A stretch of DNA of 64,000 nt from the NCBI GenBank assembly GCA_040220855.1, contig JAVJVZ010000023.1, positions 22,102-86,101 of the forward strand, written 5' to 3'. The DNA is from Gammaproteobacteria bacterium. GTDB lineage: Bacteria > Pseudomonadota > Gammaproteobacteria > Ga0077536. Positions 2,045 to 18,182 of the stretch are shown one piece after another (position 1 is the first letter of the stretch; every line of letters begins with the position of its first letter). The notes beneath the pieces are model-generated. The model was not told the DNA's origin. It was given only the letters and a program-made list of their open reading frames with translations, and did no database searches. Made by a program: the position numbers and the translations under genes.

Positions 2045-3595
2045 TCAGTCACGCCGGCCACGCCAGCGTAGCGCGTAGAGTTCGCCGCGACGATCGGCGA
2101 GGTTGCGCACCGAGCCCTCCTTGCGCAGTTCGACGAGTTTCTCGAGATCGAGGTCGACCACCAGTAGCTGCTCGGTGTTCGGCGTGGTCTCGGCGATGAT
2201 GGCATCGTGCGGGAACGCGAAGTCGGACGGTGAGTACACCGCCGACTGCGCGTACTGCAGGTCGAGATGCTCGACCTGAGGCAGGTGGCCTACGCTGCCG
2301 GCAACCACTACGTAGCATTCGTTCTCGATCGCACGCGCCTGCGCACAGCGCTGCACGCGCAGGAAGGCGTTCTTGGTGTCGGTCCAGATCGGCACGAACA
2401 GGATGTCGATGCCGTCCAGCGCCTGCAGGCGCGCGAGCTCCGGGAACTCGACGTCGTAGCAGACCAATATGCCGACGCGGCCGGCGTCGGTATCGAAGGT
2501 GCGCAGGCCGTCGCCGCCCTTGATCATCCAGAACGTGCGTTCATCCGGCGTGATGTGAATCTTGTACTGGCTATCGACGCGACCGCTGCGGTGGCACAGG
2601 TAGGCGACGTTGTAGAGATCCTCGCCCTCGCGCAGCGGCATGCTGCCGGCGACGATATTGACGTTGTAACTGATCGCGAGCTCGCTCAGCGCGCTGACGA
2701 TGTCGGGGGTGTAATCGGCGAGGCTGCGCATGGCCTCCGCGGCCTTGTCGTCGTTACGGCCGACGCCCATCAGCGGCATCGAGAAGAACTCCGGCAGCAC
2801 GACGAAATCGGCGCGGTAATCGGACAGCGAATCGACGAAGAACTCGACCTGAGAGAGCAGTTCCTCGCGCGAACCGATGGTGCGCATCAGCCATTGCACC
2901 ACGCCGACACGGACCGCTGTCTTGGGCGCTTCGACGAGCGGTTTCTCCTCCGGCTCGTAGTAGAGATTGTCCCATTCCAGCAGGGTCGCGTAGCCGCGGC
3001 TCGCCTCGTCCTCCGGCAGGTAGGCGCGCATGATGCGTTTGACCTGGAAATCGTTCGAGAGCTGGAAGTTGAGCACCGTGTCGTCGAGTTCCTGGCGGCG
3101 CACCCGATCGATGTACTCGGCCGGGGTCATGGTGTCGGCATGCTCGGCGTAGCCGGTGATCCGTCCACCGGCGAGGATGCCGCGCAGGTTGAGCTCCATG
3201 CAGAGATCCTTGCGTGCATCGTAGAGCCGCCGCCCGAGACGGTAGCCGCGGTACTCCGGATCGACCATGACGTCGATACCGTAGAGGGCGTCACCGTCGG
3301 CGTCGTGGTGGATCTCGAGCTTCGCGCTGACCAGGTCGCGGTAGCGATGCGGCGAGGAGAAGCGGTTGTAGTCGACGCGTACTGTCAGCGCCGCGGCGAC
3401 GATGACACCGTTGTCCTCGATGCACAGCTGGCCCTCGGGGAACTCCTCGAGCAGGCCGTCGATGGTATGTCGCGGCCATGCGCCACCGAGGTCCGGGTAG
3501 ACCACGTTCTCGAGACGCTCGAGCCCGGCATGGTCCTCCACCGTCAGGTTGCGTAAGCGGATGAGGGTGTCGGCGCCGGCGTCGGTCTGGCTCAT
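2045..3595 (-). CDS. Bifunctional GNAT N-acetyltransferase / carbon-nitrogen hydrolase (nitrilase superfamily) protein
   Basis: 516 aa. N-terminal acetyltransferase-like region (YRGYRLGRRLYDAR). C-terminal CN-hydrolase region with the catalytic Cys context GILVCYDVEFPE and E...K residues. Confidence 0.8.
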   Translation of the reverse strand: MSQTDAGADTLIRLRNLTVEDHAGLERLENVVYPDLGGAWPRHTIDGLLEEFPEGQLCIEDNGVIVAAALTVRVDYNRFSSPHRYRDLVSAKLEIHHDADGDALYGIDVMVDPEYRGYRLGRRLYDARKDLCMELNLRGILAGGRITGYAEHADTMTPAEYIDRVRRQELDDTVLNFQLSNDFQVKRIMRAYLPEDEASRGYATLLEWDNLYYEPEEKPLVEAPKTAVRVGVVQWLMRTIGSREELLSQVEFFVDSLSDYRADFVVLPEFFSMPLMGVGRNDDKAAEAMRSLADYTPDIVSALSELAISYNVNIVAGSMPLREGEDLYNVAYLCHRSGRVDSQYKIHITPDERTFWMIKGGDGLRTFDTDAGRVGILVCYDVEFPELARLQALDGIDILFVPIWTDTKNAFLRVQRCAQARAIENECYVVVAGSVGHLPQVEHLDLQYAQSAVYSPSDFAFPHDAIIAETTPNTEQLLVVDLDLEKLVELRKEGSVRNLADRRGELYALRWRGRRD

Positions 3596-3783
3596 GCGGA
3601 ATCGGTAACGGGAAACGAGGGCGATCTAGCCTAACGGATCGTCGGGCGAGGCGATACGCCGCGGCAGGACGCGCACCGCCGACAGGTCCGGCTTGCGCCG
3701 CGGCGCGCGCTTGGCCATGCTCGCGGTCGCGTGCCGCCCGGCACGCGCCACCGACAACGTCGCCGTACCTGGAGCCAGTCGCC

Positions 3784-14928: not shown

Positions 14929-16119
14929 TCACTGCGGGGCGGGGCCGGCGGCGCGTCGGCGTGCCCCGGCAAGCAACAGCAGGCTGCCGGCGACGGCGGC
15001 CGCGAGGGAGCCGATCAATACGCCGATACGCGTCGCGCCGACATAGTCGAAGGCACCGCGTTCGAAGGCCAGGTTGCCGATGAACAGGCTCATCGTGAAG
15101 CCGATGCCGGCAAGCACGCACACGCCGTAGAAGCTGCGCCAGTCGGCGCCCTCCGGCAGGCGCGCGAGACCCAGCCGGATGGCGACCCAGCACACCGCGA
15201 ACACGCCCAGCTGCTTACCGAGGAACAGTCCGCTCGCGATGCCGAGCGGCACCGCGCTGACGACGAGCGCGGGGTCGAGACCCTTGAACGGCACGCCGGC
15301 ATTGACGAAGGCGAACACCGGCAGCACGAGGTAGGCGACCCACGGGTGCAGCGCGTGCTCAAGCCAGCGTAGCGGCGAATGGCCACGCGCGTCCGCGGCG
15401 AGCGGAATGCAGAGCGCAACGACGACGCCCGCCAGCGTGGCGTGCACGCCGGACTTGAGTACACCCACCCAGACCACGACACCGATCAGCAGGTAGGGGA
15501 TGATCGAGCGCACACCGCTGCGGTTGAGCGCGACGAGCGCGACGATCCCGCCGCCGGCGACGGCCAGCGCGCCAAGGGACAGATCGGCGGTATAGAAAAT
15601 GGCAATGACGATGATCGCGCCGAGGTCGTCGAAGATCGCAAGCGAGGTCAGGAACATGCGCAGGGATTGCGGGACGCGCGAGCCCAGCAGCGAGAGCACG
15701 CCGAGCGCGAAGGCGATATCGGTCGCGGCCGGAATGGCCCAGCCCTGGCGCGCCGCAGGGTCATCGTGGGTGAAAGCGAGGTAGATCAGCGCAGGCAGCA
15801 CGAAGCCGCCGATGGCACCGAGACCGGGCAACAGGATCTGGGAGCGATTGGAGAGTTCCCCCTCGAGCACCTCGCGCTTGATTTCGAGGCCGACGAGCAG
15901 GAAGAACACCGCCATCAGGCCATCGTTGACCCACAGGAAGAGTGGCTTGTCGATGCCGACGCCATCCACCAGTACGGCGAGGTGGACGATCAGCAGGCGG
16001 TCGTACCAGATTGCAAGCGGGGTGTTGCTGGCGAGCAGCGCGGCGGCGGTCGCCGCCATCAGCAGGATGCCGGCAGCCGCCTCGAGACGCAGGAACTCAC
16101 GGATCAGTGACAGTGGCAT
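14929..16119 (-). CDS. nhaA: Na+/H+ antiporter NhaA
   Basis: Twelve-TM profile with conserved NhaA segments (LAIFDDLGAI, FFLLVGLEIKRE). Start re-picked at MPLSLIREF; the upstream part of the ORF is a read-through of the MITE inverted repeat. Confidence 0.85.
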   Translation of the reverse strand: MPLSLIREFLRLEAAAGILLMAATAAALLASNTPLAIWYDRLLIVHLAVLVDGVGIDKPLFLWVNDGLMAVFFLLVGLEIKREVLEGELSNRSQILLPGLGAIGGFVLPALIYLAFTHDDPAARQGWAIPAATDIAFALGVLSLLGSRVPQSLRMFLTSLAIFDDLGAIIVIAIFYTADLSLGALAVAGGGIVALVALNRSGVRSIIPYLLIGVVVWVGVLKSGVHATLAGVVVALCIPLAADARGHSPLRWLEHALHPWVAYLVLPVFAFVNAGVPFKGLDPALVVSAVPLGIASGLFLGKQLGVFAVCWVAIRLGLARLPEGADWRSFYGVCVLAGIGFTMSLFIGNLAFERGAFDYVGATRIGVLIGSLAAAVAGSLLLLAGARRRAAGPAPQ

Positions 16120-16121
16120 AG

Positions 16122-16438
16122 TAGAACCGGTCTCACAATTAATCGTGGGTGCGTTGGCGCCCAAAAAGCTCGGCCCCAAGAAGATCGTTGGTGGGGACAC
16201 AGTGCGCAGGGAATAGTGGTTCTATTGCCAAGCACTGTAACGCCGTAGACGGGCCCCATGAAAATGTTGGTGGGGGGGGGCAACCCGAAGGGCCGATGGC
16301 TGCCAAATCCATCCTTTCTGGCGCGCATTTCCGCGTTGCTCGTCACTCACACGCTGAGCATCCTATTCGCTCCTCGCGCCTTGAACTGCGCGAAAGCAGC
16401 CGTCGGCGCAACCACGATTAATTGTGAGACCGGTTCTA
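16122..16438. mobile_element. MITE-like non-autonomous element with 27-bp perfect terminal inverted repeats and no coding capacity
   Basis: TAGAACCGGTCTCACAATTAATCGTGG at 16122-16148 is the exact reverse complement of 16412-16438. The interior is about 260 bp, lower in GC than its surroundings, and contains only short overlapping ORFs. Confidence 0.6.
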
Positions 16439-16535
16439 GTCACTCTGGCGTGGTATCGCGCCGCGATCAAGCCGCGCCCGAGAACGGCAGGCGCACTGGT
16501 TACAATCGCGCCGACGTCGCGCAGGAGTCCGCTTG

Positions 16536-18182
16536 ATGTATCTCGATCGCACCGCCACCACCTATGACGAAGTCCGCGCCCGCTTCAGCTGGGACGGCCG
16601 CGTACCCGACGAGCTCAATCTCGCGCACATGGTCTGCGATCGCTGGGCCGACGATCCGCAACGCGTCGCGCTCGTCTATGAACGCGCCCCGGGCGAGGTC
16701 GAACGCCATACCTATGCGCGCCTGCGCGAATGGAGTGACCGTTGCGCGAATCTCTACGCGAGCTGCGGTCTCAACCGCGGCGACCGGGTGGCGGTGCTGC
16801 TGCAACAGCACCCCGAGGCCATCGTCGCCCATCTCGGCGCGTGGAAACGCGGGCTCGTCAGCTGCCCGCTCGCCGTGCTGTTCGGCCCGGACGCGCTCGC
16901 CTATCGTCTCGCCGACTGCTGCGCGCGCGTGGTCGTGACGGACGCCGCCAACGCACCCAAGGTGCAGGAGATCCGCGGCGCGTGTCCGGCGCTCGAGGAA
17001 GTCTTCGTCATCGACGGCGCCGTGCCCGGCTGCACCGACTTCCACGCCGCGCTCGCGGCGCAACCGGACACGACCGAGGTCGCCGTGACGCACGCCGACG
17101 ATGCCGCCTGGATCAGTTACACCTCGGGCACCACCGGCCCGCCCAAAGGCGCGCTGCAGCCGCACCGCATGCTGCTCGGCATCCTGCCCAGCCTCGAGTT
17201 CGTGTGGGACTTCTTTCCCCGCACCGGGGACGTGACCTGGTCCCCGGCCGACTGGTCGTGGATGGGCGGCTTCACCGGCGTCATGCTGCCGAGCCTGTGG
17301 CATGGATTGACCACCGTCGGCACACGCCTTGGGCCATTCGAACCCGAAAATGCGTACCGCATCCTCGCCACCCATGGCGTGACCTGCACGCTGCTGGTAC
17401 CGACCATGCTGAAGCTGATGCGCCAGGTGCCGGCGCCGCGTGAGCGCTACGACCTGCGCCTGCGCGTGGTGAAGTCGGGCGCCGAGGCGGTCGGCGCGGA
17501 ACTGCTCGAGTGGGCCACGCGCGAACTCGGTGTGATCGTCAACGAAGTGTTCGGCCAGACCGAATGCATGGAGCCGCTCGGCAACAACGCCGCGGTGATG
17601 CCGATCAAGCCCGGCTCGATCGGCCGCCCCCTGCCCGGCCACGAATGTGCCATCGTCGACGACGACGGGCGTGAGCTGGGGACCGACCAGCTCGGTCACA
17701 TCGCGGTGCGCGCACCGCACCCGGTGATGTTTCTCGGCTACCTCGGCCGCGACGACGCGACCAGCGACAAGTACCGCGGCGACTGGCTCATCACCGGTGA
17801 CCTCGGCGTGCGCGATGCCGATGGCTATTACTGGTTCCGTGGGCGCGCCGACGACGTCATCACCAGTGCCGGCTACCGGATCGGCCCGGCCGAGATCGAG
17901 GATGCGCTGCTGCGTCATCCGGCGGTCGGCAACGCTGCCGTGATCGGCGTGCCCGATGCCGAGCGCACCGAGGTGATCAAGGCGTTCGTCGTGCTCGCCC
18001 CCGGCCATCACGGCGATGCGGCGCTGGTCGAGGCGCTACGCGACCACGTGCGCACGCGCCTGGCGCGCCACGAGGTGCCACGCTTCGTCGAGTTCGTCGA
18101 CAGCCTGCCGATGACGACTACCCACAAGGTGATGCGCCGCGAGCTGCGCGAGCGCGAACGGCAGCGTCGCGACAGCGCCTGA
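16536..18182 (+). CDS. AMP-dependent acyl-CoA synthetase/ligase
   Basis: AMP-binding motif YTSGTTGPPKG, the downstream GWLITGD-type motif, and a C-terminal K. AGGAG RBS 8 nt before the ATG at 16536. Confidence 0.85.
   Translation: MYLDRTATTYDEVRARFSWDGRVPDELNLAHMVCDRWADDPQRVALVYERAPGEVERHTYARLREWSDRCANLYASCGLNRGDRVAVLLQQHPEAIVAHLGAWKRGLVSCPLAVLFGPDALAYRLADCCARVVVTDAANAPKVQEIRGACPALEEVFVIDGAVPGCTDFHAALAAQPDTTEVAVTHADDAAWISYTSGTTGPPKGALQPHRMLLGILPSLEFVWDFFPRTGDVTWSPADWSWMGGFTGVMLPSLWHGLTTVGTRLGPFEPENAYRILATHGVTCTLLVPTMLKLMRQVPAPRERYDLRLRVVKSGAEAVGAELLEWATRELGVIVNEVFGQTECMEPLGNNAAVMPIKPGSIGRPLPGHECAIVDDDGRELGTDQLGHIAVRAPHPVMFLGYLGRDDATSDKYRGDWLITGDLGVRDADGYYWFRGRADDVITSAGYRIGPAEIEDALLRHPAVGNAAVIGVPDAERTEVIKAFVVLAPGHHGDAALVEALRDHVRTRLARHEVPRFVEFVDSLPMTTTHKVMRRELRERERQRRDSA

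Follow-up and report, generated by a model that had tools for sequence, protein, structure and literature searches.

A putative non-autonomous mobile element with variable ends and a conserved, covarying interior next to nhaA in an uncultured gammaproteobacterium

The nhaA–acyl-CoA synthetase intergenic region

In the window analysed here, a 64,000-nt (64-kb) stretch of contig JAVJVZ010000023.1 from an uncultured gammaproteobacterium, nhaA, which encodes a Na+/H+ antiporter, and a gene for an AMP-binding acyl-CoA synthetase are divergently oriented, and a 317-bp element bounded by long inverted repeats lies between them. Positions 16122-16148 (TAGAACCGGTCTCACAATTAATCGTGG) and 16412-16438 are exact reverse complements of each other, as stated in the preliminary description of this DNA, and the repeat can be lengthened to 32 nt at 97% complementarity (16122-16153 and 16407-16438). 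With 3 mismatches permitted, 0 of 100 dinucleotide-preserving shuffles of the window matched the repeat, and its two arms are the only matches in the 64 kb. When the whole window is scanned for inverted repeats, the 16122/16438 pair ranks first and is the sole long, near-perfect one, the remainder being 73-90% GC-rich pairs such as chance alone would produce. The inner end of the left repeat (16146-16159) also matches the synthetase coding region (16946-16959) exactly, in inverted orientation, over 14 nt, and this too is probably fortuitous. Several further features listed in the preliminary description are borne out. The left arm ends 2 nt (16120-16121) from the nhaA ATG (16117-16119, minus strand), the interior has a GC content of 55-62% as compared with 64-73% in the flanking genes, and there is no transposase within ~5 kb, where the gene order is that of syntenic relatives.

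The single copy in the window might suggest a fortuitous inverted repeat or an artefact of assembly. However, three other, independent assemblies of this organism (L001, L005 and L006; L numbers designate the loci compared here) have the element without a single sequence difference, which argues against an assembly artefact, and with the shuffling result and more than 70 homologues, described below, this explanation is refuted and has next to no chance of being correct. All of the open reading frames (ORFs) inside the element are, on sequence grounds, spurious because copies of the family differ by frame-breaking indels and mirrored substitutions, in agreement with the earlier view that the interior holds no credible ORF. 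The peptide TINCETGS is indeed readable on both strands, but the trio of ORFs previously named for it was not exact; the ORFs concerned are 14929..16200 (minus) and 16258..16536 (plus). A protein search with the longest internal pseudo-ORF returned a single match, P0121. An unrelated locus (L007) has a diverged copy of the element, and P0121 is a spurious ORF that overlies it; a coding reading was rejected on this ground.

Comparison with syntenic relatives

The closest homologues of the encoded NhaA, 92, 90 and 87% identical, are found in three relatives (L002, L003 and L004) with a common gene order in which a luciferase-like gene, an APH kinase gene, a small hypothetical gene and the AMP-binding gene are followed, divergently, by nhaA, a luciferase-like gene, an MscS-like gene and cysK. 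In all three, the AMP-binding gene and nhaA are separated by ~100 bp and the element is absent, and alignment of the window with these sequences leaves a clean gap of 317-319 nt precisely at the element. The element is therefore an insertion and not a conserved leader. In L002 (positions 1-1800; metagenome-assembled genome (MAG) GCA_040218915.1), there is no gene call in the 1.8 kb upstream of nhaA, yet the alignment continues the AMP-binding synthetase, and this gap may reflect a missed call or a pseudogene.

Read in the nhaA orientation, the relatives have ...GAGAGTGGC-GCC-ATG or ...CAGTGGCCGCC-ATG where the window has ...CAGAGTGAC-[TA-GAACC...GGTTC-TA]-CT-ATG. When the element is deleted from the window along with one TA, what remains is GTGACTACTATG, a sequence equal in length to GTGGCCGCCATG in L003 and four transitions apart from it. 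The search for a target-site duplication by way of an empty site, proposed earlier, thus gives a spacing that is restored minus one TA and appears compatible with TA duplication, although the sites are too diverged for proof. For the copies on the Pseudomonas aeruginosa PA83 and Azotobacter plasmids introduced below, no sufficiently close empty site was found among plasmids.

Given its location 5′ of both genes, and that either strand of the 317 nt has a predicted fold much stronger than those of shuffled sequences (z = -6.7 and -8.0), the element could be imagined to act in cis as a regulatory leader, either for nhaA or for the acyl-CoA synthetase gene, for example a cation-sensing riboswitch of the nhaA-I kind. 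This is refuted by its absence from the orthologous intergenic region of the three relatives; in addition, homologues of the element adjoin unrelated genes, mostly at their 3′ ends, and a search of 15900-16700 against Rfam gave no match at E ≤ 1, nhaA-I and the nhaA-associated riboswitch candidates included. A leader function is consequently very improbable. The preliminary description had reserved such a function for the case of a single genomic copy conserved as a leader in all relatives; with three relatives without the element, and at least two copies in some genomes, the outcome favours mobility. Insertion at a TA just ahead of the nhaA start codon, at a recent point in the ancestry of this bacterium, is, as part of the overall explanation that we favour, the probable origin of the present arrangement.

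Family members and distribution

Homologues of the element, more than 70 in total, are located at unrelated loci, and together with the empty orthologous sites they support the original proposal of a non-autonomous insertion resembling a miniature inverted-repeat transposable element (MITE). That the window contains a mobile, non-autonomous element of this family is very likely. When the whole window element was compared by blastn with plasmids and phages, only chance matches were obtained. Two pseudo-ORFs used as a degenerate probe led to four MAGs with six additional loci between them; JAPOKK01 (L008 and L010) and JAUIFX01 (L009 and L011) have two copies each. A degenerate pattern built on the conserved core, AGTGYGCAGGNAA-N12-16-CCAANNNCTGYAACGC, matched 62 JGI metagenome contigs and had 0 matches in viral contigs. 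Searches of PLSDB by blastn with family members identified full copies on plasmids of two strains of Azotobacter chroococcum, on the IncP megaplasmid of P. aeruginosa PA83 and on a 1.8-Mb Halomonas replicon. A second Azotobacter plasmid, pAcX50e (L080), has a copy with an internal deletion. There are one or two copies per replicon in these cultured hosts, with two places occupied in three of the plasmids. The nearest non-identical relatives of the window copy (L046/L050, L008, L029 and L037) are 84-88% identical to it. No description of the family was found in a literature search and it has no Rfam entry; it is widespread in Gamma- and Betaproteobacteria and apparently undescribed.

Truncated or internally deleted copies are present at L008, L080 and L077. 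The last of these, in Comamonas odontotermitis (L077:2983-3078), consists of the P2-P3 hairpin alone (~97 nt; helices are defined below) and directly follows the stop codon of ruvA, which suggests that the core hairpin can exist or persist by itself. The metagenome contig L062 has two members of different subfamilies, both on the minus strand (2557-2823 and 3455-3718) and ~630 bp apart, and a 435-nt member at L073:5549-5983 has a nested insertion of ~170 nt in its distal domain. The flanks of L027, L057 and L066 are mixed: to its left L066 matches L027 and to its right L057, a pattern that points either to recombination among copies or to a chimera assembled across the repeat. Adjoining the deleted copy on pAcX50e there is an unrelated MITE-like sequence of ~150 nt (L080:4225-4395) with terminal repeats GGCTGTGAAAAAACTCC... 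and ...GATTTTTTCACAACC.

Termini and target preference

Most copies have TA at both ends and many have CTAG, with a variable base past the TA. Deviant ends, for example TG, CA and CG, are single-base changes, and the family ends have the form TA-G...C-TA. Of 45 elements, about 22 have an ORF of at least 140 codons that terminates in the TA(G) of one end or the other, its stop codon overlapping these bases. At L011 and L012 the TA lies within the stop codon, at L009 and L013 the element separates the stop codon of a gene from the start codon of its neighbour, at L074 two convergent genes end at the two termini of the element, and the PA83 copy is located 5 nt past the stop codon of an acyl-CoA dehydrogenase gene. 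The stop-codon overlaps, with L011, L012, L013 and L078 as individual cases, show that the TA of stop codons is preferred, TA being a rare dinucleotide in these GC-rich genomes. As the terminal G (C on the other strand) recreates TAG, the host gene retains a stop codon. The orientation of the elements relative to neighbouring genes is unbiased (11 versus 12), and the insertion in the window, at a start codon, is atypical of the family.

The flanking CTAG of many copies is also what might be expected of a MITE of another superfamily, in particular of an IS5-type element with a 4-bp CTAG or YTAA duplication; the IS5-derived MITEPsy1 duplicates CTAG or YTAA (PMC3189936). In several copies, however, the tetranucleotides at the two junctions are not the same (GTAG/CTAG in the window, TTAG/CTAG at L037, CTAG/CTAA at L012 and GTAG/CTAC at L009), which excludes an IS5-type 4-bp duplication. 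Derivation from Tn3, as in a TIME, would not account for repeats without the GGGG start of Tn3-type ends and without a 5-bp duplication, and the element is much longer and more complex than the doublets of RAYT-mobilised REP/REPIN sequences. All of these origins are unlikely. MITEPsy1 (IS5-like, with its 4-nt duplication) and MITEPsy2 (Tn3-like) of Pseudomonas were considered and set aside as unrelated elements (PMC3189936).

Variable terminal repeats around a conserved fold

Nearly all members are 265-271 nt in length, and the long variants (317-330 nt), to which the window copy belongs, have two or three extra CCCC...GGGG hairpin modules. Terminal inverted repeats of 31-36 bp in nearly all members (27-36 bp across the family) are situated ~62 nt ahead of the core. 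They are of at least eight unrelated sequence types, TAGAACCGGTCTC..., CTAGTACTCCGTCAAC..., AGAGCCTATTTCAG..., CTAGTGTACTGCGCC..., CTAGGAGCCTGTCGG..., TTAGTACCCCGTTTC..., GTGTCCTGTGGTGC... and CTAGGGTCTGTTGAC..., and the interior is alignable across all of them. Despite this complete sequence difference between subfamilies, the two arms of an element always pair.

Application of RNAalifold to 44 distinct copies predicts a structure of 71 pairs, with compensatory double changes in 54 of the 71. The predicted helices are P1, the closing helix formed by the terminal repeats; P2 (~18-22 bp), which surrounds hairpin P3; a CCC-NNN-GGG mini-hairpin; the long-range helix P5 (9 bp); and the distal helix P6 (Table 1). 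Standard pairs occupy 94.5% of cells; shuffling of the columns lowers this to 71%, and displacement of the partners by 1-3 columns to 36-44%. The covariation score is 0.62 versus 0.20 for shuffles and ~0.09 for slid controls. The preliminary description had offered, as an alternative to a mobile element, a structured RNA with a very long closing stem; this was partly right, in that there is a covariation-backed, multi-helix fold for which the terminal repeats form the closing stem. Nine consecutive G residues (16272-16280) close module 2 of the window copy; in related long copies the G run here is shorter, and its length may be unstable.

Table 1. Predicted structural parts of the element and adjoining features, in window coordinates
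Feature	Position	Strand	Remarks
Left terminal inverted repeat, 5′ arm of P1	16122..16153	+	27 nt perfect, 32 nt at 97%
P2 5′ strand GCGCCCAAAAAGCTCGGC	16157..16174	+	pairs with 16244-16254 and continuation
Extra CCCC...GGGG hairpin module 1	16174..16196	+	long members only: window, L009, L029, L037, L008
Most conserved core: hairpin P3 CAGTGCGCAGGGAATAGTGGTTCTATTGCCAAGCACTG and TAACGC	16200..16243	+	motif that fetched the 62 metagenome loci
P2 3′ strand CGTAGACGGGC, then extra hairpin module 2	16244..16280	+	module 2 ends in G9 run
Invariant small hairpin CCC-NNN-GGG	16281..16292	+	loop GAA in window, variable family-wide
P5 5′ strand GGCCGATGGCTG	16291..16302	+	pairs with 16397-16407; double changes in 8 of 9 pairs
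Distal domain: variable module 3, conserved CGCGCATTTCCGCGTTGCTCGTC, helix P6, conserved GCGCCTTG	16303..16396	+	
P5 3′ strand CAGCCGTCGGC	16397..16407	+	pairs with GGCCGATGGCTG
Right terminal inverted repeat, 3′ arm of P1	16407..16438	+	ends in TA
nhaA, Na+/H+ antiporter, 396 aa, PF06965, intact	14929..16119	-	start codon 2 nt from element
Divergent AMP-binding acyl-CoA synthetase gene	16536..18182	+	ATG 97 nt from right end of element
Left junction	16120..16123	.	host AG, then terminal TA (target-site duplication or first 2 nt of element)
Residual ancestral nhaA/acyl-CoA synthetase intergenic region	16439..16535	.	holds blocks conserved in relatives

The wobble pairs differ between the inner and the terminal helices. 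In the inner helices, G-U exceeds A-C by 125 to 29, and by 23 to 9 after collapse into 13 lineages at 85% identity, and the inner fold is therefore strand-specific, the strand being the plus strand of the window, antisense to nhaA. In the P1 terminal stem the numbers are 32 to 27, or 9 to 6 after collapse, without bias, a symmetric pattern as expected of terminal repeats that act at the DNA level. In the explanation that we favour, the conserved interior (P2-P6) is probably kept by selection as a single-strand fold, as judged from the modelled structure.

Such a fold also invites a different explanation, namely that the family is a mobile structured RNA, or a folded single-stranded DNA, in which the terminal repeats are simply the closing helix P1 and spread depends on recognition of the structure or of the core. 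An RNA- or single-stranded-DNA-dependent integrase could be responsible, or the RNA could be a cofactor for its own transposase. Under this explanation, the turnover of the repeats beside a stable core and the unseen autonomous parent would both be accounted for. The core is better conserved than the terminal repeats; the length (31-36 bp) and pairing of P1 are kept while its sequence is fully replaced across the subfamilies; the short long-range helices P5 and P6 (5 bp in the latter) covary, which gene conversion between repeats cannot explain; the bias toward G-U is confined to one strand of the inner helices; there are 0 autonomous, core-bearing versions among the >70 copies; and the P2-P3 hairpin stands alone in Comamonas. 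Against these observations, the TA/CTAG flanks and TA-G ends fit a known family of DNA transposases, and the P1 wobble pairs have no strand bias. Scans for consensus promoters and terminators found none in or beside the window element, and orientation with respect to host transcription is unbiased. None of the 4227 Rfam families matches at E ≤ 1, either the window copy or 14 other family loci; matches of microRNA precursor models to the long hairpins were below gathering scores and were dismissed as spurious. The loops of the small hairpins (GAA, GGA, TGC, TTC and others) do not separate RNA from single-stranded DNA. UNCG tetraloops were rejected as proof of RNA, since the loop of the small hairpin can equally be read as one of 3 nt, and GAA is also a stable loop in DNA. 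Overall, a mobile structured RNA or folded single-stranded DNA is a distinctly less probable explanation than a transposase-mobilised MITE, and its more specific form, a hitherto unrecognised kind of selfish element consisting of a ~270-nt structured RNA or single-stranded DNA whose core would be recognised, or would serve as cofactor or ribozyme, in TA-specific, stop-codon-sparing integration, is a shade less probable again.

Mobilisation

On balance, we consider it probable that the element is a TA-targeting, non-autonomous MITE of the Correia/ERIC/IS630 type, mobilised by an IS630/Tc1-mariner system, with a fold under selection and an effect on nhaA. The element would be moved in trans, by cut-and-paste, by an IS630/Tc1-mariner-type DDE transposase, with duplication of TA on insertion and with TA or CTAG as target, mostly the TA of stop codons where the terminal G would restore TAG. 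The interior would fold, as a single strand, into P2-P6. This fold, held by selection, would most likely act on read-through transcripts or in the element's own propagation, and at the transcript level the long duplex, of the type cleaved by RNase III, and the compact fold may uncouple or stabilise the flanking messages. The terminal inverted repeats, terminal TA, target duplication and base-paired transcripts ascribed to bacterial MITEs in general (PMC2229807) appear, by analogy, to match. As the mobiliser, an IS630-type transposase can be named only tentatively, with a likelihood that we place slightly short of even.

The one IS630-family insertion sequence (IS) encountered beside copies of the family is in Azotobacter (L076:3215-3900 and L081:3001-4186), with a transposase (WP_233094031.1) annotated in strain HR1. 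It is inserted in the terminal CTAG of the family element, on the right-hand side in strain NCIMB 8003 but on the left-hand side in HR1, and its own ends have the same form, TA-G...C-TA. The HR1 copy of the element has no right terminal repeat. These arrangements show that IS630-type transposases coexist with the family and use the same kind of target, although mobilisation is not thereby demonstrated. The Azotobacter IS630 was rejected as the autonomous parent as its terminal repeats are different, and a partial match on pAcX50e was rejected as an IS end as it proved to be an internally deleted copy of the family.

Several observations weigh against a transposase-mobilised MITE. An IS matching the window element should have ends beginning TA-GAACCGGTCTC, and no transposase with matching ends, and no matching pair of repeats more than 450 bp apart, is present in any of the loci fetched. 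The repeats of the Azotobacter IS630, GTGTCTCAACAC..., are unlike those of the element, GGGTCTGTTGAC.... If the family had arisen by deletion from an IS with a sequence-specific transposase, the repeats should be conserved and the core free to vary, which is the opposite of the pattern found. The lack of an orientation bias leaves a read-through function in one orientation without support. Being palindromic, TA could belong to the repeat itself, and the empty sites of the relatives are too diverged to reveal a single TA. Copy number is low, a search of the 64-kb window with a family profile revealing no second copy. Finally, exact 20-mers of the terminal repeat have no match in collections of genomes, viral contigs or metagenome contigs, and the exact repeat is therefore specific to this lineage.

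Relation to known repeat families

Correia, ERIC and RUP elements have terminal repeats, a terminal 5′-TA-3′, target-site duplication and highly paired transcripts (PMC2229807). Classical bacterial MITEs are <200 bp (PMC2229807), and the window element, at 317 bp, is larger. The Correia/NEMIS elements of Neisseria resemble the family in being non-coding and gene-adjacent, with long terminal inverted repeats (~24-26 bp in Correia), a terminal TA and a parent IS that is not known, and their transcripts form long hairpins for which cleavage by RNase III has been proposed (PMC2229807). Correia elements, which duplicate a TA target, are AT-rich, 100-155 bp and present in hundreds of copies in one genus, whereas the members of the family described here are GC-rich, 265-330 nt and low in copy number, occur in both Gamma- and Betaproteobacteria, and combine a conserved multi-helix interior with repeats that vary between subfamilies. 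The ERIC/IRU (RU-1) elements of enterobacteria are likewise TA-flanked, intergenic palindromic repeats for which the transposase is not known. They occupy transcribed intergenic regions in either orientation, show conservation from one genus to another and are believed to act at the RNA level on mRNA stability (PMC2229807). ERIC is, however, a 127-bp single imperfect hairpin with short true terminal repeats, as opposed to six helices, some of them long-range, and no sequence similarity between ERIC and the family was detected.

A further parallel is provided by RUP of Streptococcus pneumoniae and other MITEs derived from IS630/Tc1-mariner elements, with which the family shares a TA target and ends that resemble IS630; IS630-family ISs target CTAG and TA. 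RUP has been attributed to IS630-Spn1 (PMC2229807), the repeats of which it matches, whereas none of the loci fetched here yielded an IS whose repeats match those of the family, the interior of which, moreover, is not what remains of a transposase gene. In having a conserved and compensated structure, in this instance in the 5′ region of an nhaA gene, the family also resembles the structured RNAs of Rfam, including nhaA-I. Unlike nhaA-I, it has no match in Rfam 15 (window copy and 14 loci, E ≤ 1), and elsewhere it is not associated with nhaA.

Probable consequences for nhaA expression

Insertion of the element pushed the ancestral nhaA-proximal sequence ~319 nt away from the gene. Displaced with it are a GAGAGTG-like motif, which in the relatives is 5-6 nt before the ATG, and two blocks that are invariant in the three relatives, GATCAAGCC at 16465-16473 and GGTTACAATCGCGCC at 16498-16512. 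The GGTTACAATCGCGCC block holds a TACAAT hexamer, 28 nt before the ATG of the synthetase gene, and both blocks are, from their sequence and conservation, candidate promoter or operator elements of the divergent genes. Transcripts initiated in the ancestral nhaA promoter region would have to cross the entire element. In such transcripts, the nhaA AUG would be 2 nt from the base of a 32-bp duplex, with the sole purine-rich stretch (GAGA) located in the 3′ arm of that duplex. An AUG placed beside a 32-bp duplex implies that initiation of nhaA translation is probably impaired or dependent on processing, and nhaA expression is thus probably altered, most likely reduced or processing-dependent. Across four assemblies no allele other than the filled one was seen, and nhaA is intact.

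Significance

With a mobile element between nhaA and its upstream signals, this genome provides a natural experiment on how a key Na+/H+ antiporter is expressed. The family to which it belongs extends through marine and sediment metagenomes and is present in Azotobacter, Pseudomonas, Halomonas and Comamonas; culturable hosts are among those with copies. It inverts the usual pattern of MITEs, having variable ends and a conserved, covarying interior, and provides a tractable case for a question also raised by ERIC and Correia sequences, namely whether orphan, TA-flanked repeats are kept by selection for a single-strand fold, and by what they are mobilised. With TA-G ends that regenerate a stop codon, such elements would be able to insert at gene boundaries in GC-rich genomes with little damage.

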